The notes under the pieces: model-generated
Told to the model about the DNA's origin: nothing
Databases searched by the model: none
What the model saw: only the letters and a program-made list of their open reading frames with translations
Origin: Candidatus Saccharimonadota bacterium
Lineage (GTDB): Bacteria > Patescibacteriota > Saccharimonadia > Saccharimonadales > Saccharimonadaceae
Direction: 5' to 3'
DNA: 32,000 nucleotides
Assembly: GCA_023898645.1 (NCBI GenBank)
Contig: CP060232.1
Location: forward strand, 1,080,001 to 1,112,000
Shown here: piece by piece, positions 811 through 32,000 of the stretch
Layout: each line of letters opens with the position of its first letter
Numbering within the stretch: the first letter of the stretch is position 1
Translations under genes and position numbers: made by a program

Positions 811-2115
811 TTATTTATCTTTAAATTTTTCGCTATCGTCCTTCATGTCCGAGTCGACGTCTAGAAGTGACGGACCAGTAGAAGTATGCACTCGTGCATT
901 ATGTAAGGCGCTCTCTAAGTCGCGTCGACTTCTGAAATAGTAGACGACACCGAGTGTTATAGCGGCTACACCGACAAGACCAGCAACAACTTCAACAGGG
1001 CCGGTTGTTGGCAGCGCAGCACAAGTACCCGAGACGGTTACGACCGCACTATCCTGACGATTTCCGTTATCCGTTTCTACAGAGGCGGTATTTTTTAGTA
1101 TCGAACAAGGATCTGCATCAACACGTGCTTCGAATGATAAGTAAGCACTTCCACCAGGTGCATAGTTTCCAATATCAATCCCTCCGTTTGCAATACCATT
1201 ACCGACGATTGCTCCGTTAGGATTTGTATCGTCATAAAGTTTCGTCTTGCCCGGTAGATACGTCAACCCGACTGGTAATATATCTTTGAGTTTTACGTCT
1301 AGTTGATTAATCGTACCAGTATTCTCATAGCTCAAAAGATATTCAACAGTTGAGCTTTTTTTCACAGTCACACTATCATGCCACCCGGTAGTACCGGCCT
1401 GACGAACCTCCTTTTTAAACGTAAAGTTCGGTTGTACTGCCTTAAATGCAAACGTTATCCAACCAGAGTATTGATCGCAACCCGGTAAATCACCGTTCAA
1501 ACTATCAAAGCCAAGCGGTTTACCACTGCTACTAAATAGTGCTGTATCACCGAGAGACGTACCGTTCGTCATGCCCTTATTATGTATAACTGCGGTGCCC
1601 GGCACATAGCGCAGCGATATATCTGTTGCCGTTTGATTCTGCATAGTGAAATAGTCAAACACCATTTTTGGATTTGCATTACTAGCTCCAATAAAAGCCT
1701 CTGCTTCGGTACCGGTTGCGTGAGCTTTAACTACAGCAGGCAGCTCAACCCTAGCATAAGCTCCATGCGCAATACCAACGCCACTTTGATTCAAGCTACT
1801 CGATGCATTATTGTGGTAAAAAATCATCGCTTCATATTCTTTACCCGGAACTAAATTAGCGTCTTGTTCAAATGTTTTATTGTCAGTAAGGTTTCGTACT
1901 CTAAAGAAATTACGTTCGTCTCCGTATGTCGGATCGTCTGTAATCGAATCAAAGGTAACGTATGTAGCTGGTTGCGCCTGAGTAAATGTTGGGCGATCCG
2001 GACCATAGGCAAATACCGCCACTGGAATCACCACTATCGACACGAAAGACATCACAATAAAAGCAATAGAACGAACAGTATTTTTTTGACTGAAAAGGTT
2101 GGTTATCTGACGCAT
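811..2115 (-). CDS. LPXTG-anchored cell-surface protein with a DUF11-like repeat domain
   Basis: N-terminal signal/TM segment (SIAFIVMSFVSIVVIPVAVFA). C-terminal LPTTG motif, then a hydrophobic segment (PVEVVAGLVGVAAITLGVVYYF) and RSRRD. A DUF11-like stretch is present (TVEYLLSYENTGTINQLDVKLKDILPVGLTY). An AAGGAAG SD lies upstream of the ATG. Confidence 0.75.
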   Translation of the reverse strand: MRQITNLFSQKNTVRSIAFIVMSFVSIVVIPVAVFAYGPDRPTFTQAQPATYVTFDSITDDPTYGDERNFFRVRNLTDNKTFEQDANLVPGKEYEAMIFYHNNASSSLNQSGVGIAHGAYARVELPAVVKAHATGTEAEAFIGASNANPKMVFDYFTMQNQTATDISLRYVPGTAVIHNKGMTNGTSLGDTALFSSSGKPLGFDSLNGDLPGCDQYSGWITFAFKAVQPNFTFKKEVRQAGTTGWHDSVTVKKSSTVEYLLSYENTGTINQLDVKLKDILPVGLTYLPGKTKLYDDTNPNGAIVGNGIANGGIDIGNYAPGGSAYLSFEARVDADPCSILKNTASVETDNGNRQDSAVVTVSGTCAALPTTGPVEVVAGLVGVAAITLGVVYYFRSRRDLESALHNARVHTSTGPSLLDVDSDMKDDSEKFKDK

Positions 2116-2147
2116 AGTTCTTCCTTTTTTGTGTTTATTTTTATGTC

Positions 2148-4067
2148 TTATTTTGGCTTCTTTGCCGCACCATGGAGTACAGACGAACTAGGCGCCTCAC
2201 TGGGGCCGCTTGTATGTAGCTGGCTTGAAGTCGTACCCGCTACACGATTTGCATTTGGTGCGTTCAACGGACTCGTAATAGTCTCAGTTCTCGTTACGCC
2301 ATTCGGGCTGATTGCAGTCGACGTGCTTTTCACAGGAGCAGGCACCGTCTCAAGATTATCGACAGGTAATGGATGCACGGCAGGCGGACCCGCCTCAACC
2401 CCCTTACTAATTAACGGTGGCGGAGGTGGCGGAGGCGGTGGCGTCACTTCAGGTGGCGGAGGTGGCGGTGGCGTCACTTCAGGTGGCGGAGGTGGCGGTG
2501 GCGTCACTTCAGGTGGCGGAGGTGGCGGTGGCGTCACTTCAGGTGGCGGAGGTGGCGGTGGCGTCACTTCAGGCGGTGGCGCTTGAGGTGGTGGTGACGA
2601 AGGCGGTGCTACTTCCGGTGGAGGCGCAACTTGCGGAGAATAGTGCACAGGCGGAGCATTATAAACTGGTACATACGTACTTCGTGGAGCGACTGGTGCC
2701 GGCGCATAATGCGGATGCGGAACCTGAGTTGCAATTTGGTTACAACCGACTTCTACGATAATCGTCTTGCCACCAACGTGCCACTGCACAGCTTTGACAC
2801 CACTATAATTTACTTCGTTGTCGTAGAATACTTGCCCTTTATGCGTACCAAAGATAATGGCGTTGTTCATTTGGTTACTGCCCCACGAAGAATATCCAGG
2901 ATCCAACGTCACATGGTCGCCAAGCGAACCATTGTTCATGGCGTCAACTAATTCATGCGTAACTTTGAAGCGGACATCCGGATGAGACTGTAGGTAATCA
3001 GCGAATTCATTTACCTTAGTATTGTAATCGTTGAGCGTCATTATATTACGCAACGCCTCTGGGCTAGGTTTTACAGGAGCGCCGCCCATACCAAGCTCAG
3101 ACAAGTAAGCCGCAGTCATATGAGGATCGCTACGGAACATATCTTCAATATTTTTTAATGCCGCACCTTTATCACCATTCAAAAGTGCCAAATTTGCAGC
3201 ATCAAAATCATTAATATGGTTCTTGTTCGGTAGCATTGCAGTGCTCTGACTGTTGAAGTATTGATCAATGATTGATTTTTCTGGTGCCTTACCTGGCAAA
3301 GGGACTCCTGAGCCATTCCCTGGACGATTATTCACGTCAACGCCGGATCCACCAAACAAATGAGGAGCTACTTCTCGATACGCCACATACGCTCCAACAG
3401 CCGCAGCGCCCAGGCCAACCAATTTGGCTATAGATTTACGTCGTTCGTGCTTATCGTACTTCTCAAGTTTTTTTTCTATTTCTTCGTCGCTAAAACCCTT
3501 ATCTACAAGATCCTGTTCAAAGCGTGATCGTTTTTGCCAACGCTTTTCAGACTTCTTTTCACGCCATTCGGACAATTTACCCATGCCCATCATTACACGT
3601 GCGCTTGAATTCAACTTTACATGCTCGGACTTGCTTTCGGAATTTTCAGATGATTCCTCGCTTTTATTAAAAATATTTATCACTCGTTCACGAAGACTGT
3701 CGTCTTCATTTATGATAGAGCCCATATTTTTTTGCTTCATTACAGCTATAACATTCCAGATAGCCTCGGCATTATTACCACGACCACATATTCGATCCCA
3801 CATCTTTTCGGGTATTGCATCGACGGCATTGGCTCCAATGGCCTTGTCGAATATATGGCTTATAATCTCTTCGCGGTCTTCGTTTTCATACTCCTTTATT
3901 TCCTCAGGAGTTAAATACTTGGCAAACTCCATAACAGTCGTCTGCTCCGACTCTGGTGACGAGACATTTTGACTCTCAACTACATCAGGAGAATCCTGAT
4001 TATAATCCTCATGCCGCTTACCCTCTGGTACGCTGTCGTGTGATTGTGACGGCTCACCTTCGCTCAT
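2148..4067 (-). CDS. Bitopic membrane protein with an acidic N-terminal region, one TM segment, an extracellular domain and a C-terminal proline-rich decapeptide repeat
   Basis: 639 aa. The TM segment is LVGLGAAAVGAYVAY. Five PPPPPPPEVT-type repeats lie near the C-terminus. I recognise no family. Confidence 0.65.
   Translation of the reverse strand: MSEGEPSQSHDSVPEGKRHEDYNQDSPDVVESQNVSSPESEQTTVMEFAKYLTPEEIKEYENEDREEIISHIFDKAIGANAVDAIPEKMWDRICGRGNNAEAIWNVIAVMKQKNMGSIINEDDSLRERVINIFNKSEESSENSESKSEHVKLNSSARVMMGMGKLSEWREKKSEKRWQKRSRFEQDLVDKGFSDEEIEKKLEKYDKHERRKSIAKLVGLGAAAVGAYVAYREVAPHLFGGSGVDVNNRPGNGSGVPLPGKAPEKSIIDQYFNSQSTAMLPNKNHINDFDAANLALLNGDKGAALKNIEDMFRSDPHMTAAYLSELGMGGAPVKPSPEALRNIMTLNDYNTKVNEFADYLQSHPDVRFKVTHELVDAMNNGSLGDHVTLDPGYSSWGSNQMNNAIIFGTHKGQVFYDNEVNYSGVKAVQWHVGGKTIIVEVGCNQIATQVPHPHYAPAPVAPRSTYVPVYNAPPVHYSPQVAPPPEVAPPSSPPPQAPPPEVTPPPPPPPEVTPPPPPPPEVTPPPPPPPEVTPPPPPPPEVTPPPPPPPPPLISKGVEAGPPAVHPLPVDNLETVPAPVKSTSTAISPNGVTRTETITSPLNAPNANRVAGTTSSQLHTSGPSEAPSSSVLHGAAKKPK
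2416..2580. repeat. 30-bp tandem repeat: 4 perfect copies at 2451-2570 plus one variant copy, in frame within the CDS
   Basis: The unit AGGTGGCGGAGGTGGCGGTGGCGTCACTTC occurs at 2451, 2481, 2511 and 2541 with no mismatch. It encodes PPPPPPPEVT on the minus strand. Confidence 0.95.
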
Positions 4068-23994: not shown

Positions 23995-24092
23995 GTATTT
24001 GGCTTGAAATATTGCTCTCGCAATTCCTTGGGACTCGATAGATTATAGCATAGTGTAAGGGGTCGGACTAGCCCTTGTGTGTTCTACGTCTA

Positions 24093-24121
24093 TTGACTTT
24101 ATGCTTATTTATTGGTATAGT
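24093..24121 (+). promoter_or_regulatory. Sigma-70 promoter placing the TSS at the start codon of pilin paralog P1 (leaderless)
   Basis: TTGACT-17 nt-TATAGT-6 nt-ATG(24128). Confidence 0.65.
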
Positions 24122-24127
24122 ATTAAT

Positions 24128-24550
24128 ATGAAGACAAAGGTTTTCTTGGGAGTACCAATCATTGCTACTATTTTGGTGGCTAGCTTAGTATTTACCCAAG
24201 ATACTCATGCAGTTAGCCTCAGTATATCTGCCGGCGCCAGTGCTGCAAAGGGTACGGATCAAGCAGCTAATTTATTCGGTCAGACAGGTATGTTTCGTAC
24301 TATAACCAACGTACTGCTATATCTCATTGGTGCCATAAGCGTCATTATGCTTATCATAGGTGGACTACGATACGTTGTGTCTGGTGGAGACAGTACTGCC
24401 GTACAAAATGCGAAAAATACGATTCTTTACGCCATTGTCGGTATCGTCGTTGCAATTTTGGCATATGCTATCGTCAGTTTTGTTATTTCATCGTTCACAG
24501 GAGTAGGTGGCGGAGCTGGTGGTGGTGGAGTTGCGCCGACTAATACGTAA
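24128..24550 (+). CDS. TrbC/VirB2-like T4SS pilin-family protein, paralog P1
   Basis: Signal peptide MKTKVFLGVPIIATILVASLVFTQDTHA, then the two-helix core NVLLYLIGAISVIMLIIGGLRYVVSGGDSTAVQNAKNTILYAIVGIVVAILAYAIVSFV and a Gly-rich tail. It resembles the Pfam T4SS_pilin family as I remember it. Confidence 0.8.
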   Translation: MKTKVFLGVPIIATILVASLVFTQDTHAVSLSISAGASAAKGTDQAANLFGQTGMFRTITNVLLYLIGAISVIMLIIGGLRYVVSGGDSTAVQNAKNTILYAIVGIVVAILAYAIVSFVISSFTGVGGGAGGGGVAPTNT

Positions 24551-24830: not shown

Positions 24831-25499
24831 TTAGTCGAGAGTTTGACGACTAATTGAGGCAACCCAAACCTTACCAGCACCAGCATCAAGTAAAGTCTGG
24901 GCTGCGTATTTCACGGTCGCCCCAGTTGTAATGACATCATCTATAAGTAGATATGTTGCATTTGGATCTAACTTTTTACGGCAGACAAATGCAGACTTTG
25001 CTTGTGACACACGCTCCCGCACTCCCATGCCGCGCTGTGTTGTATTTGTAGCACGACTCAGCGACAAATCGACAGACAGCTTTCGTAAGCCACTAAACTT
25101 TCGCGCTACTAATAGCATGTGGTCGTAACCCCTTTGGCGAATATGAGAACCAACTGTAGGTACGGGAACAATAATTGTATTTTTCGGTAATTCAGGCAAA
25201 TGGGAATGAAGTAGGTCAGCGAGCGGGCCATGTGCTGCTCGCGTGTTACTAAACTTGAAGTCATTTATCAGACTTTCAAGATGATCACGACGGTCGGCGA
25301 CACACCAGGCGCGCTCATATGGCACACGACATACTCCACATAAACCACTTGCTGGCGCCAGTTGCTTGCCACAGCCCACACACGCAGAGAAAGGTTCGCT
25401 TATGATGTCATATTTACAATTATCACATAGCATGGTGCCAATTATTCCGCATCCGGAACAGTGGTGGGGAGCGATAATTGATAGTAGTTGGTCAATCAT
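24831..25499 (-). CDS. comF: ComF-family competence protein (phosphoribosyltransferase domain with N-terminal Cys-rich zinc-ribbon-like region)
   Basis: CSGC...CDNC and CVGC...CGVC pairs, plus the PRTase motif YLLIDDVITTGATV. Confidence 0.85.
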   Translation of the reverse strand: MIDQLLSIIAPHHCSGCGIIGTMLCDNCKYDIISEPFSACVGCGKQLAPASGLCGVCRVPYERAWCVADRRDHLESLINDFKFSNTRAAHGPLADLLHSHLPELPKNTIIVPVPTVGSHIRQRGYDHMLLVARKFSGLRKLSVDLSLSRATNTTQRGMGVRERVSQAKSAFVCRKKLDPNATYLLIDDVITTGATVKYAAQTLLDAGAGKVWVASISRQTLD

Positions 25500-25604: not shown

Positions 25605-26072
25605 ATGGCCCGCAAACAAAATACCAATGACGATCTATTGATCGAAGACGAATTGGCCGCCGCATTCCTGAATGACGACGATCTTTCAAGTAACGCCGAT
25701 GATGGCGGTGTCGTCATGCATGATGACGAACAGCTTGAAGACGATTTTCCAGGACAGTTGGCAGTCGATGTATACGAAACCGAGGATAAGCTGGTTGTTA
25801 AAGCCCGCACAGCCGGTGTAAACAAAGATGAGCTAGACGTCAGTATATCTGACGGCATCCTAACAGTCAGCGGTACGCTGAGCAGTGGTGATGACGCCGA
25901 TGTTAATAACTGGCACATTCAAGAATGCTACTGGGGCGAGTTTAGTCGTACACTAGCACTTCCTGTTGCCGTTAAGGAAGATGAAGTAGAGGCCGTCTTA
26001 AAGGATGGTGTTCTAACCATTACATTTAGCAAGGTTAAGCAAGAACACGCTAAGAAAATTCAGGTTCTGTAA
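25605..26072 (+). CDS. Hsp20/alpha-crystallin-family small heat-shock protein
   Basis: The alpha-crystallin domain runs from LAVDVYETEDKLVVKARTAGVNKDELDVSISDGILTVSG to FSRTLALPVAVKEDEVEAVLKDGVLTITFSK. A GGAGG SD lies 8 nt upstream. Confidence 0.9.
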   Translation: MARKQNTNDDLLIEDELAAAFLNDDDLSSNADDGGVVMHDDEQLEDDFPGQLAVDVYETEDKLVVKARTAGVNKDELDVSISDGILTVSGTLSSGDDADVNNWHIQECYWGEFSRTLALPVAVKEDEVEAVLKDGVLTITFSKVKQEHAKKIQVL

Positions 26073-26087
26073 AACTACAGTCCAATC

Positions 26088-26119
26088 AAAAAACTCCGCG
26101 ATAATCCGCGGAGTTTTTT
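26088..26119. terminator. Bidirectional rho-independent terminator between hsp20 and the pilin operon
   Basis: A 13-bp stem, AAAAAACTCCGCG / CGCGGAGTTTTTT, with a 6-nt loop. Confidence 0.8.
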
Positions 26120-26133
26120 GATTAGCAGCTTAA

Positions 26134-26553
26134 TTACTGGCCGCTAGTGAAACTTGAGACAACAAAGTTGACTACAGCGTAGGCGAGAATAGCAACGACC
26201 ACACCGACAATAGCATAAAGAATCGTATTTTTCGCATTCTGCACAGCCGTACTGTCGCCGCCAGATACAACGTAACGAATACCGCCGATAATAAGCATGA
26301 TCACACTAATTGCGCCAATGAGGAACAATAGCACGTTGGTAATGGTACGGAATATACCACCCTGGCCACCTGTACCAAAGAGAGTAGACGCGTCACCCTG
26401 CTGGTCCTTGCCCTGTGCAGCTCCTGCGCCGTCACTTAGTCCTTGGTTGAATGATGCGTGCACGGGAACAGGTTGCGCGAACAGACCAAAGCCCAATACC
26501 AATGCCGGTACGACAAGCGCCGCCGACAGAAGTTGTTTGATTTTACTTTTCAT
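26134..26553 (-). CDS. TrbC/VirB2-like pilin-family protein, paralog P2 (closest paralog of P1)
   Basis: Signal peptide MKSKIKQLLSAALVVPALVLGFGLFAQPVPVHA. The core NVLLFLIGAISVIMLIIGGIRYVVSGGDSTAVQNAKNTILYAIVGVVVAILAYAVVNFV is present. The ORF is open to 26568, but the second ATG has the better AAAGG SD. Confidence 0.8.
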   Translation of the reverse strand: MKSKIKQLLSAALVVPALVLGFGLFAQPVPVHASFNQGLSDGAGAAQGKDQQGDASTLFGTGGQGGIFRTITNVLLFLIGAISVIMLIIGGIRYVVSGGDSTAVQNAKNTILYAIVGVVVAILAYAVVNFVVSSFTSGQ

Positions 26554-26625
26554 GTATGAACCTTTCATTTTGATTACTTTACTACTTTTATACCAGATGA
26601 CGGGAGTTTTGTTAAGTGCTAACCA

Positions 26626-27006
26626 TTAACTTTTAAACGCACCGAGAACGAAGTTGACGATGGCGTACGCTAAGATAGCGACAACTAAACCAATAACCGC
26701 ATACAGCACAACGTCCTTTGCTGATTTCACTGCTTGCGCGTCACCGTTACTCGTCGCGTAACGAATACCACCGATGATAATCATTATGACCGCAACAGCA
26801 CCCAAGAGAAACAGGAGTACGTTCACGACTGTTTTAATTTTATCTTGAAGATCTTGCGTACCTGTCTGAGTACCGCCAACAGACGTAACTCCGCCTTGTA
26901 TGCTATCAATTGGGCTTTGGGCTAAAACAGTTGAAGGCAACAGTGGTGCTGTAGCCAATCCAACTGTTGTCATAATGCCGAGAAGTAGTGTACGTAGTTT
27001 ATTCAT
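26626..27006 (-). CDS. TrbC/VirB2-like pilin-family protein, paralog P3
   Basis: Signal peptide plus core NVLLFLLGAVAVIMIIIGGIRYATSNGDAQAVKSAKDVVLYAVIGLVVAILAYAIVNFV. A TAGGAG SD is present. Confidence 0.8.
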   Translation of the reverse strand: MNKLRTLLLGIMTTVGLATAPLLPSTVLAQSPIDSIQGGVTSVGGTQTGTQDLQDKIKTVVNVLLFLLGAVAVIMIIIGGIRYATSNGDAQAVKSAKDVVLYAVIGLVVAILAYAIVNFVLGAFKS

Positions 27007-27019
27007 ATGGTTTCTCCTA

Positions 27020-27436
27020 TTAGTTTCCTTTCAGTCGTGCCAGTACGAAGTTGACAATTGCATACGCCATGATTGCAACGACGAGGCCTATAACAGCATA
27101 CAACACGGTGTCTTTGGCAGATTTAATCTGTTGTGAATCACCATTACTTGTGGTGTATCTGATACCCCCTATGATAATCATGATCACAGCAACTATACCT
27201 AGCACGAATAAAATCATGTTGATAATGTTTGTCATAATAGAGGTGAAGCTGTCGCCAGTTGCGCCACAAATCTGACTCTGGCCAGCGCTAGAGGAGGCTC
27301 CGCCACCGGTAGTAGCACCACCAGCACCGCCACCAGGGCAATTCTGAAACACATTAATAGCCATAGCTGGCACTGGCATAAAACTAGTAAAAATAAGACT
27401 GAGACTAATGAGTAATGGTGATAGATATTTTTTCAT
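27020..27436 (-). CDS. TrbC/VirB2-like pilin-family protein, paralog P4 (Gly-rich loop bounded by 2 Cys)
   Basis: Signal peptide, NCPGGGAGGATTGGGASSSAGQSQIC, then core NMILFVLGIVAVIMIIIGGIRYTTSNGDSQQIKSAKDTVLYAVIGLVVAIMAYAIVNFV. The SD is AAGGAGGA. Confidence 0.82.
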   Translation of the reverse strand: MKKYLSPLLISLSLIFTSFMPVPAMAINVFQNCPGGGAGGATTGGGASSSAGQSQICGATGDSFTSIMTNIINMILFVLGIVAVIMIIIGGIRYTTSNGDSQQIKSAKDTVLYAVIGLVVAIMAYAIVNFVLARLKGN

Positions 27437-27446
27437 ACGTCCTCCT

Positions 27447-27743
27447 TTATTTTGCGACTTGCTGCAATATGAATTGTGTTATACCGGCCGCCATGATGAC
27501 CACAATTAAACCAACGACAGCATAGGTGATAGTGTTCTTTGCTGCCTGGATCTGACTACTGTCACCGTTGGCACCTACATAGCGAACACCTCCGATGATA
27601 ATAGCAAGTACCGCAACAATGCCTGCAATGAAATAAACGACGCCCAGTAAGTTACCAACCGTAGTACCTGTAATACTAGTAGGGGCACCCTGAAGGTTCA
27701 AATCTTCTTTTGAAATCTTAATTGTGTTGTTTGAAGTTGCCAT
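27447..27743 (-). CDS. TrbC/VirB2-like pilin-family protein, paralog P5 (no N-terminal signal peptide)
   Basis: 98 aa with a hydrophilic N-terminus (MATSNNTIKISKEDLNLQGAP). The core is GVVYFIAGIVAVLAIIIGGVRYVGANGDSSQIQAAKNTITYAVVGLIVVIMAAGITQF. Its start overlaps the P6 stop (TAATG). Confidence 0.75.
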   Translation of the reverse strand: MATSNNTIKISKEDLNLQGAPTSITGTTVGNLLGVVYFIAGIVAVLAIIIGGVRYVGANGDSSQIQAAKNTITYAVVGLIVVIMAAGITQFILQQVAK

Positions 27744-28210
27744 TATTTGATACTCCCAGCAATAAATTGAACAATGGCAATCGCCATAATTGAAATAACC
27801 AGACCAATGATAGCATTTTGGATGGTTTTGCGAGCAGCAACAGTGCCGCTACTGTTGTCACCCTGTGTCATATATTTAAACCCTCCCCATATAATGAATA
27901 TGAGTGATGCGTAACCAACGACGTAAAGTAACATATCTACAATGTTCATGGCGATAATCGTCAGCCATGTGCCAAACCTTTTACCAGTGTCGCCACTACC
28001 AACCTCATTGGGTGATTTTATACTTCCGTCACTTTTACATAGTCCATCGTACCAATGGGGGAAAATAGTGATACTTCCGCCACACGGATTAGAGCCGCCC
28101 GCAGAACTTGCGACGGTAGGCGCCGCATTAACGTATGACACCGGTAGTAGAGTAAATGCCGCAAGACTTATGAAAGTAATAGCAATTTTATATCTTATAT
28201 TTCGTAACAT
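27743..28210 (-). CDS. TrbC/VirB2-like pilin-family protein, divergent paralog P6 (2 Cys)
   Basis: Signal peptide, PCGGSITIFPHWYDGLC, then core DMLLYVVGYASLIFIIWGGFKYMTQGDNSSGTVAARKTIQNAIIGLVISIMAIAIVQF. Confidence 0.7.
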   Translation of the reverse strand: MLRNIRYKIAITFISLAAFTLLPVSYVNAAPTVASSAGGSNPCGGSITIFPHWYDGLCKSDGSIKSPNEVGSGDTGKRFGTWLTIIAMNIVDMLLYVVGYASLIFIIWGGFKYMTQGDNSSGTVAARKTIQNAIIGLVISIMAIAIVQFIAGSIK

Positions 28211-28217
28211 GTCGCAT

Positions 28218-28586
28218 CTATCCTATCACGCCACCAGGTACCAGCCAATTGATAATTGCAATGGTAAAACCATAAAGTAACAGACCAATGACAATATTTC
28301 GAATGATTGTTTTTGACTGATCTAGCTGGGATTGATTGTCGCGAGCAGACGCATAGAGAATTGCAGCATACGCCAAACCGCCAGTCGCCACCACTCCGAT
28401 GAGTATAGTTAGTACGTTTGTCGCTATTTTTATCAAAGCACCAATTGTACCTATACCAGTTTTATCGCTACAGGAAATCAATTGAGTTTTAGTAGTACCA
28501 CATGAACCTGCAGCGTATACAGGTGCAGCACTAACACCAAGCAGGACGGCAAAAAGCGCAATGGTGATTTTTATTTTTTTCATCAT
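28218..28586 (-). CDS. Pilin-like two-helix protein, subfamily B, paralog P7 (2 Cys)
   Basis: Signal peptide MMKKIKITIALFAVLLGVSAAPVYA, SCGTTKTQLISC, then NVLTILIGVVATGGLAYAAILYASARDNQSQLDQSKTIIRNIVIGLLLYGFTIAIINWLVPGGVIG. Confidence 0.7.
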   Translation of the reverse strand: MMKKIKITIALFAVLLGVSAAPVYAAGSCGTTKTQLISCSDKTGIGTIGALIKIATNVLTILIGVVATGGLAYAAILYASARDNQSQLDQSKTIIRNIVIGLLLYGFTIAIINWLVPGGVIG

Positions 28587-28595
28587 ATCTTGGCG

Positions 28596-29771
28596 CTATT
28601 TTATCACGCCTCCGGGTACTAGCCAATTGATGATAGCAATCATAAATCCATACACAAATAAACCTATCACGATATCGCGAATCCGCTTCCGTGCGTTTGA
28701 TACGGCTCCTTGGTCGTCTTGAGCCTGTGCGTACTGAATTGACTCCCACACTATACCGCCGACAGCCCCTATACCAACCAGTATCGAAAGTGCCTGCACG
28801 ACATACTGAAGCACCGTACTAAGTACCTCTCCGCCCCTAGCATTTGTGTCGCAGTTTATAAGATTAGTCTTTGCTTGGCCACATCCGCCTTTAACCGTAG
28901 AGGTTGTCGTACCTGGACCGCCAGCATCATTAACACTTGAACCGTCTGGGCAATTACCGTTTGCATCCGCCGTGCTGCCATCCTTACACTTAGGAGGCGT
29001 GGGTGGCGGCGGCAATGTACACTTATTATTTACCCATGTACCTCCGGCAGCAGAGCATTCATTTGGCGACTTCGCCTTCGTTGCCATACATTGCTGCAGT
29101 GTATCGTTGGTAATTTTTGTTCCCGTACCACCATTCTGGTCATAACACTCATTAATCGAGTTATCGATGTTTGTCTCGCACTGCTTTATCTGATTAACAT
29201 CACTAAGATTAGCGTTGTTACAGGCGCTCGCCACATAGCTATCTATGCGATCCTGTTTAGTCTTCGAGTTCGTATTGTAGTCTTGGCCCCCGACCGCTGC
29301 GTTACGCTGGTCAATGGCGTTGTCTATGCCACACCCAGACCCCAAGGTAACTAGCCACAAATCCGTTGGCCCTGAACCATCCGCACCAACATTACCGTTA
29401 TTACACGTTGTTGCAAACGCTAAAACATCTTTGTCATTACACGCGGTAGTGTCTATTTCATTGGTATAACAAGATACAAGTGCGTTCGAACAGTTACCCT
29501 CTTCAGTACCTGGTACATAAGAAATGGAGCTAAGGCCACCTATCTGTGCCGTGTTTGCACACTGCCTAACCGCAGCAAGACAGTCACTAGCCTTTATGTA
29601 TTGCGATACCGACTTGCAGTTACCGCTTACACATGTACCATCATCCTTTGAGCCAGAGCAAGACGCCTGCGCTGCGTCCTCATACACAAATGAAAAAGAA
29701 AATGATGCGGCGATTATACTGACAATTACGAGTAGTTTTTTCATGAACAATGTTATTCTCTTAATATTCAT
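28596..29771 (-). CDS. Cys-rich extracellular domain fused to a subfamily-B pilin-like C-terminal module (P8)
   Basis: 391 aa with a signal peptide. By my count ~20 Cys lie in the first ~310 aa. A PPPPTPP linker follows. The C-terminal ~95 aa (GCGQAKTNLINC...LSILVGIGAVGGIVWESIQYAQAQDDQGAVSNARKRIRDIVIGLFVYGFMIAIINWLVPGGVIK) are collinear with the whole mature part of P7. Confidence 0.75.
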   Translation of the reverse strand: MNIKRITLFMKKLLVIVSIIAASFSFSFVYEDAAQASCSGSKDDGTCVSGNCKSVSQYIKASDCLAAVRQCANTAQIGGLSSISYVPGTEEGNCSNALVSCYTNEIDTTACNDKDVLAFATTCNNGNVGADGSGPTDLWLVTLGSGCGIDNAIDQRNAAVGGQDYNTNSKTKQDRIDSYVASACNNANLSDVNQIKQCETNIDNSINECYDQNGGTGTKITNDTLQQCMATKAKSPNECSAAGGTWVNNKCTLPPPPTPPKCKDGSTADANGNCPDGSSVNDAGGPGTTTSTVKGGCGQAKTNLINCDTNARGGEVLSTVLQYVVQALSILVGIGAVGGIVWESIQYAQAQDDQGAVSNARKRIRDIVIGLFVYGFMIAIINWLVPGGVIK

Positions 29772-29865: not shown

Positions 29866-30834
29866 CTATTCAGACGGTGCTTTAATAGAGAGTGTGTCGG
29901 GATAGGTGATTATCATTGTTGTAGTTGCGGGCACGCGGTCTTTATTGTCACTAATATTTTGAAGCTTCGTTATCTTACCAGATGTCTTATTAATCCAAAA
30001 CTTCACTTTCACAACACCAGATTGTTGATTGGCAGTCGCGTAGGATACGGTGCGACCAAGCAACTTATCTACCTGTAAACTGGCTGTCTTTAATCCGTTC
30101 TGATTCAGAATAATCGTATAAATATCTGTGTCGTTGCCTGAATTAACGCCATCAATTGTATAAACGTTATTTTCCTTCACGATGTCCAATAGGCTTTGAA
30201 CTCCGTCACCAAAATTGCCAGCAAATACATATCTTGGTATCGTGCTAGCAGTAAATCTTAGACCAAATGGGTCATATGCCGACACGTCCGCTTTTTTGCT
30301 CAGATCGCTTAGATGTTTCCATACACCCGTTTGGACTAAGCCGTTTGGAGCCATAGTGCCAGACACATTGTCAATCTGAGAAAACTTCGCGTAAAAATCT
30401 CCTGAATCTAAAGCGATTAATGACCCCGCAACTCTACCTTTATTAAGCCCATACGCATCGCTATCTTTAGATACGGAGACACTGTAATTAACGTCCACCC
30501 TAGGCGCACTCTTCATGGAGAAGTCTGATGTCGTCGTCATGTCTATCTTCAATGATTCACTACTGGCGGTTCCGTCTGCAACGATTTTGATATATTTTTC
30601 GTTCGCAAACTGTCTAATTGCTTGATAAAACTCTCTCTCCGGGACGCCTTGTACCCATACAAATACCGCCGCGCCAAGACCACCAACCAATAGAATTATG
30701 AGTGTGACTGTAAATATAAGCTTCAACTTTTTATTAGATTTCGACCGCTGGCCCGTTGCGGGATCAAGGTGTAAGTAATCAGGAACTTGATAGGGCATAC
30801 CGTTTTGATTTGAGTTTTGTTGATTTGGTTGCAT
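29866..30834 (-). CDS. Bitopic membrane protein (short Q/N-rich cytoplasmic tail, one TM, ~250-aa extracellular domain); first gene of the pilin operon; possible VirB8-like accessory
   Basis: The TM segment is LIFTVTLIILLVGGLGAAVFVWV. The VirB8 analogy rests only on topology and size. TGATATAAT lies 10 nt upstream of the ATG. Confidence 0.6.
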   Translation of the reverse strand: MQPNQQNSNQNGMPYQVPDYLHLDPATGQRSKSNKKLKLIFTVTLIILLVGGLGAAVFVWVQGVPEREFYQAIRQFANEKYIKIVADGTASSESLKIDMTTTSDFSMKSAPRVDVNYSVSVSKDSDAYGLNKGRVAGSLIALDSGDFYAKFSQIDNVSGTMAPNGLVQTGVWKHLSDLSKKADVSAYDPFGLRFTASTIPRYVFAGNFGDGVQSLLDIVKENNVYTIDGVNSGNDTDIYTIILNQNGLKTASLQVDKLLGRTVSYATANQQSGVVKVKFWINKTSGKITKLQNISDNKDRVPATTTMIITYPDTLSIKAPSE

Positions 30835-30915: not shown

Positions 30916-32000
30916 ATGATGCAGCGCTTGTCGAACCAACTGTTTGGCGGATCGCGCACACTTCTTCGGCGTGGGGCGTTATTCATGTTTGCCGGTGTTA
31001 TGGCACTAGTCGTGACAGTATCGCCACTTGCAACACGTCCAGCATCAGCTCTTAGTTTTAGTCTGACCGGCAACAGTTGCGCCATCGAAACTGTAGGGTG
31101 GGTTGTTTGCCCCACGATGCGCTCTATTGCGCGCCTAGCTGACTATGGTTTTTCCTATATAAATCAAAGTTCTCTCGCTATAAACTATAAAATTTTCGAT
31201 AATTCGAGCAAAACCTTCAAGGCATGGGAAATCATGCGCAACATCGCCAACGGCATGTTTGTTGTAGTCTTTTTATACATTATATATGGCTACCTTATAG
31301 GTCGAACCGGCGGAAACTACACCATCAAGCGGCTACTACCACGCCTCGTAATCACAGCCATCGTCGTCAACACTTCGTATTTCCTAGGGGTTATTCTAGT
31401 TGATATATCAAATATTATCGGTGATTCCATATGGAGTATATTGAAAAATATTTACGGCAACGGCAGTCCTGTCATGCCAATTGGCGGAAGCGCCAATCCA
31501 CTTAGTGATGGCAATTTGACCAAAATGGCCGCGGCTGCCATGGGCAACACAGGAATGGTATGGGTACTAATGCCTCTAATTGCTGCCGTCACTATTACTG
31601 TCGCTATCATCAGCGCCGCCATGGTGATACTTGTCATCATGCGCGAAGCACTTGTTGCCGCACTTATTTTTGCGTCACCGTTATTAATAGTCCTTTATAT
31701 ATTGCCCAATGTTGAGCGTTTTTCCGGACAAGCAATACGACTATTCCTACAGCTCTTGTTGCTGTACCCAATTATTGCGCTACTGTTAGGAACTGGTCAA
31801 ATTGTCAGCCTGGCGGCCGGTAGCTGGAGTAATACATCTGCATTTTACGGCGGTGGAACTATGAGTATTGTGCCCGACCTTGTTGCTGCGGCAGCAGCCG
31901 TAGTACCCTTACTAGCCGTATGGTTCGTCTTTAAGAATATGTCGTCCATCATGAACGCTGCCGGTACACGATTAACTGCAAGCATTTCCGGTCGACGAGG
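30916..32000 (+). CDS. Polytopic membrane protein, VirB6/TrbL-like; 3'-truncated by the window edge
   Basis: This ORF is absent from the supplied track because it has no in-window stop. I translated it by hand, and the frame is open from ATG 30916 to 32000 (361 codons). It has a signal/TM segment (ALFMFAGVMALVVTVSPLATRPASA), the stretch FKAWEIMRNIANGMFVVVFLYIIYGYLIG, and at least 5 further hydrophobic helices. It is divergent from the pilin operon. Confidence 0.65.
   Translation, partial: MMQRLSNQLFGGSRTLLRRGALFMFAGVMALVVTVSPLATRPASALSFSLTGNSCAIETVGWVVCPTMRSIARLADYGFSYINQSSLAINYKIFDNSSKTFKAWEIMRNIANGMFVVVFLYIIYGYLIGRTGGNYTIKRLLPRLVITAIVVNTSYFLGVILVDISNIIGDSIWSILKNIYGNGSPVMPIGGSANPLSDGNLTKMAAAAMGNTGMVWVLMPLIAAVTITVAIISAAMVILVIMREALVAALIFASPLLIVLYILPNVERFSGQAIRLFLQLLLLYPIIALLLGTGQIVSLAAGSWSNTSAFYGGGTMSIVPDLVAAAAAVVPLLAVWFVFKNMSSIMNAAGTRLTASISGRR

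Follow-up and report, generated by a model that had tools for sequence, protein, structure and literature searches.

A cysteine-rich ectodomain fused to a VirB2-like pilin module in a Saccharibacterial type IV secretion pilin operon

Introduction

In the type IV secretion systems (T4SS) of Patescibacteria, VirB2 is encoded by arrays of 2-11 tandem pilin genes with low identity among the paralogues (PMC12102498). The same survey found no adhesins, including those of the PrgB type, and VirB5 was confined in it to a rare system of the Gram-negative type (Quinonero-Coronel et al. 2025, PMC12102498). Southlakia, the one genetically tractable Saccharibacterium, requires the T4SS and its pilin array for its epibiotic life (Wang et al. 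2023, PMC10633639), and a pilus in these monoderms has been called merely a possibility (PMC12857230). In Ca. Mycosynbacter amalyticus, a wastewater member of the Saccharimonadia, cryo-electron tomography (cryo-ET) revealed a conduit about 8.6 nm wide and a lance, some 70 nm in length and about 9 nm across, which extends from the inner membrane and carries a "barb density" at its tip; the composition of conduit and lance alike is unassigned (PMC11880426). The Pam pili of that organism were considered and set aside, being a different donor-strand system with an immunoglobulin fold that is irrelevant to the locus described here. The present work concerns P8, a pilin with a large cysteine-rich N-terminal domain, encoded in a 32,000-nucleotide (nt) stretch of a Candidatus Saccharimonadota genome (GCA_023898645.1, contig CP060232.1, positions 1,080,001 to 1,112,000), which is referred to below as the window.

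Results

P8 is a genuine two-module protein of a Saccharibacterial T4SS pilin operon. Its gene is the first of seven tightly packed pilin genes separated by gaps of 0-57 nt. The parts of P8 and the adjacent short pilin P7 are listed below in window coordinates, with lengths in amino acids (aa).

28596..29771, minus strand: P8, long pilin of 391 aa, array gene 1 (open reading frame (ORF); PF18895 match; identical to NCBI protein H6797_05880 except at the start)
29664..29771, minus strand: P8 residues 1-36, predicted Sec signal peptide (basic N-region, hydrophobic core at residues 6-31, AQA followed by S)
29019..29663, minus strand: P8 residues 37-251, ectodomain of class 0 (defined below), all-alpha, 16 Cys (AlphaFold2 (AF2) model, Cys conservation)
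28884..29018, minus strand: P8 residues 252-296, flexible "neck" made of the PPPPTPP linker, the CKDGSTADANGNCPDG mini-hairpin and a Gly/Thr-rich spacer (sequence)
28596..28883, minus strand: P8 residues 297-391 and stop codon, VirB2-like pilin module (Pfam, BLASTP, model, hhalign)
28218..28586, minus strand: P7, short pilin of 122 aa with 2 Cys, array gene 2 (orthologues at position 2 in relatives)

The pilin module contains a Cys-x9-Cys loop, two hydrophobic helices, an RKRIR cytoplasmic loop and an INWLVPGGVI end. Hydropathy analysis placed hydrophobic stretches at residues 6-31, 316-345 and 363-390, the last two being joined via the RKRIR-containing loop QAQDDQGAVSNARKRIRD, and in the AF2 model helices 314-349 and 354-384 form a C-terminal hairpin. 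P8 has the layout of VirB2/TraA/TrbC pilins, with a signal-like N-terminus, two hydrophobic helices and a short positively charged loop. It belongs to the T4SS_pilin family PF18895, which matched residues 315-384 with 32.0 bits (E 1.4e-07; Pfam threshold 26.6), and a precomputed PF18895 match is also recorded on the identical NCBI protein. By BLASTP, residues 295-390 aligned with residues 27-121 of P7 at 47% identity and 68% positives with one gap (E 1e-26). This alignment confirmed the relationship to the P7 module that had been proposed in the initial annotation; it spans the Cys loops GCGQAKTNLINC and SCGTTKTQLISC and includes the INWLVPGGVI terminus that was said to be common to both proteins. 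The PPPPTPP linker (residues 254-260) and an even count of about 20 cysteines were likewise borne out, as P8 has exactly 20 Cys, 18 ahead of the pilin module and 2 inside its loop. Two figures required correction: the loop spacing had been given as Cys-x10-Cys, and the ectodomain as about 290 aa, the mature region outside the pilin module being about 260 aa (residues 37-296).

P8 and P7 form a subgroup of their own within the array, with 44% identity between their modules and 20-33% between either of them and the five other array pilins. P7 alone scored 16.1 bits, under the PF18895 threshold. When the modules of positions 1 and 2 from 14 genomes were compared by hhalign with those of positions 4-7, the P7/P8 subgroup was found to be homologous to the canonical paralogues with a probability of 97.2% (E 4.7e-11, 74 columns). 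The Pfam scan gave no match of P8 itself to TrbC/VirB2 (PF04956), and in NCBIfam there was just a sub-threshold match to the Mbov_0395 pilin-like conjugal transfer family (20.5 bits vs a cut-off of 40). No meaningful match to solved pilins was obtained among PDB sequences with either the P8 family profile or a canonical paralogue, and the Foldseek matches to T-pilus VirB2 were insignificant (E 6-8) and appeared only with the model of the relative P0010.

Cleavage of the signal peptide is predicted after AQA. The model shows an N-terminal helix at residues 3-27, and an MxxKQ start is common to the homologues. The NCBI entry H6797_05880 (382 aa) begins from an ATG 9 codons downstream, which affects the stretch 29745-29771 on the minus strand; the upstream ATG at 29771 (MNIKRIT) fits the starts of homologues (MNVKQIK, MKIKQT).

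The AF2 model of P8, built from a 19-sequence alignment, had a mean pLDDT of 73. It consists of a helix bundle with small hairpins, a disordered neck (residues 282-315, pLDDT below 50) and the C-terminal helical hairpin. Between residues 41 and 260 most block means of pLDDT lay in the range 74-92, apart from a poorly predicted region around 121-150. Across the 19 homologues, nine cysteines are invariant and four nearly invariant; where one member of the pairs Cys 52/64, 123/147 and 262/274 is missing, the other is usually missing as well, and the Cys total is even in most homologues. Paired loss of this kind is, as a sequence pattern, the signature of structural disulfides in a putative extracytoplasmic domain. 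Disulfides are predicted for C52-C64, C123-C147, C262-C274 and, in the loop of the pilin module, C297-C307. The ectodomain had no match in Pfam or NCBIfam and none in a profile search of PDB sequences. Foldseek with the P8 model returned no fold match in the PDB (best E 2.4) or in the viral BFVD (best E 0.73), and the tip proteins VirB5/TraC had no similarity to P8 in Pfam, the PDB sequence search or Foldseek.

The fusion is retained well beyond this genome. Eighteen full-length homologues, 30-45% identical to P8, keep the order of the parts. When 1.84 billion representative proteins were searched exhaustively with HMMER, using the ectodomain alone as query, just 25 relatives emerged, 22 of which are pilin fusions of 360-495 aa; the other three are a 224-aa fragment, the protein P0069 described below and a repetitive protein of 591 aa whose match appears to be spurious. 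The identical P8 protein is encoded on a 1.13-Mb contig of the NCBI metagenome-assembled genome (MAG); it is also found in the Logan assembly of another run, SRR28385528, where a contig matches the window with 100% identity across 7,252 nt. The same architecture is found in more than 50 homologues out of independent assemblies from many samples.

To place the fusion among relatives, one genome per GTDB species was scanned, giving 29 loci, which were then searched by ORF and hidden Markov model scan. At 19 of the 29 loci the first gene is long (293-502 aa, 10-23 Cys), and behind it come a P7-like gene and five more pilins whose Cys pattern is conserved, so that the fusion is kept at orthologous loci, a check proposed in the initial annotation. 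In three loci (L009, L020 and L023) the extension is carried by the second gene or by the first and second, two loci are truncated at contig ends, and the remaining five have short pilins only. In L009 a gene for 188 aa comes first and the ectodomain-bearing gene, for 382 aa, second. Genes 1 and 2 are both extended in L020 (246 and 197 aa) and in L023 (259 and 347 aa), where the second has a singleton ectodomain. All loci except L023, labelled Chloroflexi, carry the label Saccharibacteria, Saccharimonadales, Nanosyncoccaceae or Patescibacteria (28 of 29). The source MAG is labelled "Candidatus Nomurabacteria" at NCBI, which is probably wrong given the labels of these 28 related loci. No P8 homologue bearing the name Ca. 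Mycosynbacter amalyticus was among the matches, which is not evidence of absence; the genome of that organism is not listed in the supplement of the T4SS survey.

The two modules of the fusion differ in their rates of change. Mean pairwise identity was 29% for the ectodomain, 21% for the linker and 58% for the pilin module, the module being 46-72% identical among P8 and its full-length homologues. The ectodomain is thus, as judged by these identities, diverging about two times faster than the pilin module. To compare the ectodomains with each other, the N-terminal regions of 89 long pilins were clustered under strict coverage, as single-linkage clustering at loose coverage merged everything via shared short modules. 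Two large unrelated classes and about eight singletons were obtained. Class 0, the P8 type, holds 51 sequences and is helical with a CSNA..SC motif; class 1 holds 30 sequences and is beta-rich with Y.C...YH.D..CW repeats. For the class-1 protein P0010 (model pLDDT 62) there was no PDB fold match either (best E 1.3), and another class-1 protein, P0024, gave one sub-threshold match to CBM_14. Both ectodomain classes appear, from the models, to be new folds.

The proteins closest to P8 in the pilin module belong to class 1 (P0010 at 77%, P0016 at 73% and P0017 at 71%). In the metagenomic proteins P0015 of class 0 and P0016 of class 1, the C-terminal 110 aa or so, comprising the module and the neck, are essentially identical and the sequences diverge upstream, which indicates recent cassette exchange or recombination at the neck. 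The neck hairpin motif C.DGS...G.C.DG occurs in 21 of the 89 long pilins, in both classes. By these comparisons, ectodomains of at least two unrelated classes can be exchanged for one another. The interior of class 0 is divergent and not hypervariable; of the hypervariability raised in the initial annotation, divergence and exchange between classes were therefore found, and hypervariability within class 0 was not.

The class-0 domain also occurs on a second type of T4SS protein. In P0069 (L035:8001-10529), from one organism, it is fused N-terminally to a polytopic VirB6/TrbL-like protein (hhalign probability 99.1%, E 4.5e-19, 213 columns). P0069 adjoins PrgI, a TraC-like protein and VirB4 in a core cluster whose order is VirB6-like (P0069), PrgI, TraC-like, VirB4, a 1081-aa protein and a lysozyme-domain gene. 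Such a placement of the ectodomain is compatible with action either at the channel mouth or at the pilus tip.

The rest of the array and the genes that flank it are as follows.

27743-28210, 27447-27743, 27020-27436, 26626-27006 and 26134-26568, minus strand: five more tandem PF18895 pilins (31.5-49.3 bits)
26082..26125, minus strand: terminator-like hairpin with a 20-bp stem, after the last pilin gene
24077..24550, plus strand: eighth, solitary PF18895 pilin of 157 aa (41.6 bits)
29866..30834, minus strand: 322-aa protein with one predicted membrane helix, directly upstream of P8 (ORF, conservation)
30916..32000, plus strand: start of a divergent 689-aa VirB6/TrbL-like polytopic membrane protein, cut by the window end (homology to P0069)

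The seven tandem genes and the solitary one, with module identities of 20-63% among the paralogues, lie within the 2-11 genes of the described arrays. The pilin at 27020-27436 also passes TrbC (PF04956; 30.2 bits vs a threshold of 27.9), and the order and Cys pattern of the five downstream pilins are retained in relatives. A promoter scan found no more sites than in shuffled sequence. The solitary pilin lies about 1.6 kb past the array, and relatives have a similar lone pilin on the opposite strand 1.5-5 kb past the array end. An HSP20 gene (25605-26072, plus strand) and a ComF-like gene of 222 aa (24831-25499, minus strand), the latter with weak sub-threshold matches to phosphoribosyltransferase and double zinc ribbon families, adjoin the array end; both are syntenic in the three examined relatives L001, L002 and L004.

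The 322-aa gene is probably the first gene of the operon. In its product, which is 322-355 aa long in relatives, a single predicted membrane helix separates a cytoplasmic tail from an outer domain of about 250 aa; the protein could be an assembly factor or a VirB8-like component. A kinship with the 369-aa gene preceding the L035 T4SS core was considered, and the two proved unrelated on comparison. Neither this protein nor the 689-aa and 1095-aa neighbours had a family match in Pfam or NCBIfam. The 689-aa protein is 37% identical to P0069 over 264 aa (E 2e-41), with the tblastn match at window positions 31066-31776. TrbL_3 (PF19590) is recorded in precomputed Pfam tables only, on the orthologue L004:6787-8814 and on P0069; the VirB6-like assignment is based on this precomputed label together with the homology to P0069 and synteny.

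The T4SS core proteins of L035 were searched by tblastn against every fetched locus. Every long-pilin locus with enough fetched upstream sequence has a common upstream block of an esterase, a 219-aa gene, a 922-1095-aa gene and a VirB6-like paralogue. In the lineages with a short first pilin (L030-L034, including Nanosyncoccaceae), VirB4, TraC-like, PrgI and VirB6-like genes are located directly upstream of the array. Because of these two upstream patterns in the loci of relatives, the array is assigned to a T4SS locus. L002 has a second VirB6-like gene beyond the esterase. The 689-aa VirB6-like gene and the following 1095-aa gene (L001:3473-8829) resemble a duplicate of the VirB6-like/1081-aa pair of the L035 core, and the 922-1095-aa proteins are weakly similar to the 1081-aa protein in several loci.

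The window itself is chromosomal and carries GroEL, Mur ligase, TsaD, ValRS and FemAB genes. Elsewhere in it, at 811-4067 on the minus strand, a 434-aa DUF11-repeat protein lies beside a 639-aa ORF without a Pfam match; these are possibly further surface proteins.

Discussion

Saccharibacterial T4SS pilin arrays are known; what appears to be new is the ectodomain-pilin fusion and its exchange. No description of a pilin with a large ectodomain or of cassette exchange was found in PMC10633639, PMC12102498, PMC12857230 or the other literature searched. The initial annotation had held the fusion to be undescribed, which is consistent with the searchable literature, the 2025 survey of Patescibacterial T4SS reporting pilin arrays and no adhesins.

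What, then, might such a pilin do? The long-pilin ectodomain is, from the sequence evidence, the best candidate so far for the part of this essential apparatus that recognizes the host cell. Our preferred reading, held with middling confidence, is that P8 is a minor pilin that displays a host-recognition module on a T4SS pilus or lance. P8 would be exported via Sec, and its ectodomain would fold and form disulfides outside the membrane. Like that of VirB2/TraA pilins, the hairpin would be embedded in the membrane so that its two ends face outwards and its RKRIR loop lies on the inner side. The T4SS would then extract P8 together with the short paralogues into a pilus or tube. In conjugative pilins both termini are extracytoplasmic while the subunit is in the membrane, the N-termini lie on the outer face of the filament, and the filament grows from its base. 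Because of this outer-face position and growth from the base, a few P8 copies built in early or sparsely would show the ectodomain at the tip or along the side. If every subunit carried a 26-kDa domain, the pilus surface would be overcrowded, as we estimate from the published geometry of the F pilus. The displayed ectodomain may bind the envelope of the host bacterium, exchange of the cassette would retarget the apparatus to other hosts, and P8 could stand in for the VirB5 or PrgB adhesins that these systems lack.

A more specific version, which we put forward only tentatively, is that a few long-pilin copies cap the T4SS-derived tube of Saccharimonadia, their ectodomains forming the "barb" on the 9-nm lance or conduit of Ca. 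Mycosynbacter amalyticus, and that recombinational cassette exchange on a constant pilin scaffold both sets and shifts the range of hosts open to these obligate epibionts. The long pilin would be a candidate identity for the barbed tip seen by cryo-ET, and a concrete molecule for host contact and host range where surveys found no adhesin or VirB5 equivalent.

The adhesin role had been proposed from the cysteine-rich ectodomain and the pilin scaffold. The structural part of that proposal, a conserved fusion of a complete P7-type module behind a large disulfide-rich ectodomain, stands. The role itself is supported indirectly by the faster divergence, the class exchange and the paired loss of cysteines. 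Several observations weigh against host recognition on a pilus. No known adhesin, lectin or carbohydrate-binding fold was matched for either class, and as neither class resembles an adhesin, a lectin or a solved fold, binding is deduced only from evolutionary behaviour. We know of no PF18895 protein for which pilus formation has been experimentally demonstrated. P0069 should stay in the membrane, which would put the site of action of its ectodomain near the channel and not at a distal tip. The conservation of class 0, with 30-45% identity and an invariant Cys framework, suits a structural role as judged from the alignments. Our hmmscan against current Pfam gave no TrbL_3 match at E up to 0.05, and in this genome no VirB4 gene was seen in the window or up to 10 kb upstream of it. 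Synteny with L002 and L035 predicts that virB4, prgI and the second VirB6-like gene are located past the esterase gene, at more than 10 kb upstream of P8.

The main competing explanation, which the VirB6-like fusion favours, places P8 at the channel mouth; we regard it as possible, if somewhat doubtful. P8 would here be a membrane-anchored, non-polymerising T4SS accessory whose hairpin serves as an anchor or docks to a VirB6-like platform, and whose stalk- or cap-like ectodomain forms or decorates the extracellular mouth of the channel or a wall-spanning collar. This would account for the class-0 ectodomain at the N-terminus of P0069 inside a T4SS core cluster and for the VirB6-like paralogue that is the immediate divergent neighbour of the operon at long-pilin loci with upstream sequence. 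The well-conserved class-0 framework and the estimated crowding of a conjugative-type pilus point in the same direction. However, the pilin module of P8 is complete, remains 46-72% identical among homologues and shares its INWLVPGGVI end with the short pilins, which suggests that it is under the same assembly constraints. Swaps of ectodomain class on identical scaffolds are also more typical of surface recognition modules than of internal parts.

It is unlikely that the ectodomain is instead a delivered effector or a module that is brought to the host on the pilin and acts on the host envelope, for example by lipid binding, membrane perturbation or lysis. A small disulfide-stabilised helical domain without known relatives would be suited to such a task, a gene with an esterase/lipase fold is conserved in the wider locus, and Saccharibacteria kill or parasitise Actinobacteria via an envelope-penetrating tube (PMC11880426). 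Yet no catalytic motif or family match was found in Pfam or NCBIfam, Foldseek gave no similarity to saposin-like or pore-forming proteins, and the wholly different, beta-rich fold of the class-1 cassette fits interchangeable binders better than one shared activity.

Still less credible, and in our view very improbable, is P8 as the major stoichiometric subunit of a thick, fully decorated filament or sheath. Its complete pilin module and its position as first operon gene would be compatible with this, but the six or seven short paralogues encoded with it are better conserved, lineages such as Nanosyncoccaceae have arrays without any long pilin, every subunit would be subject to the steric crowding estimated above, and the observed lance or tube is just about 9 nm wide (PMC11880426). 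Finally, a frameshift or misassembly that joined the gene for a secreted Cys-rich protein to a pilin gene, the artefact against which the initial annotation had advised a check, can be dismissed with near certainty: nothing in the sequence data supported it, and against it stand the independent, 100% identical Logan assembly, the retention of the fusion by more than 50 homologues and by 19 of the 29 genomes that represent species, and an ectodomain essentially never seen without a pilin or VirB6-like partner.

If the reading of P8 as a minor, displayed pilin is true, P8-type long pilins would be the first two-domain "adhesin-pilins" of the VirB2 family. VirB2-type pilins, known so far only as minimal helical hairpins, could then carry large displayed domains, which would be relevant to the evolution of T4SS and to engineered display on conjugative-type pili.

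Comparison with known systems helps to place the fusion. P8 resembles the Patescibacterial PF18895 arrays in that these are also tandem, divergent pilins in a Saccharibacterial T4SS locus, and its module is a member of the family. In the published accounts, in contrast, the pilins are described as small and structurally similar, with no mention of a Cys-rich N-terminal ectodomain of 260 residues or of its exchange. With the VirB2/TraA/TrbC pilins (PF04956) P8 shares a leader, a hydrophobic two-helix hairpin and a short basic loop, and an array paralogue passes TrbC; the known members, however, are 70-120 aa when mature and have no extra domain, and the host of P8 is a monoderm. The extended VirB6 proteins, for example those of Rickettsiales, are comparable to P0069, not to P8, as T4SS membrane subunits with an extracytoplasmic domain, but the domains are unrelated, and that of P0069 is N-terminal and not central or C-terminal.

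Functional analogues are found in other pilus systems. In FimH/PapG of the chaperone-usher pili and CofB/TcpB of the type IVb pili, a binding or tip domain is joined to a filament-plugging pilin module, encoded alongside the major subunits, and the binding domain evolves faster than the pilin domain. There is no homology between these proteins and P8, the pilin folds and assembly machines differ, and in CofB/TcpB the extra domain is C-terminal, unlike that of P8. VirB5 and the amplified VirB2/VirB5 paralogues of Bartonella Trw and Anaplasma resemble P8 as candidate host-contact elements of a T4SS pilus. Amplification of the paralogues in Bartonella Trw and Anaplasma is thought to broaden or vary the recognition of host surfaces. 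Whereas VirB5 is a separate tip protein with no similarity to P8 in sequence or fold, the putative recognition module of P8 is covalently fused to the pilin itself.

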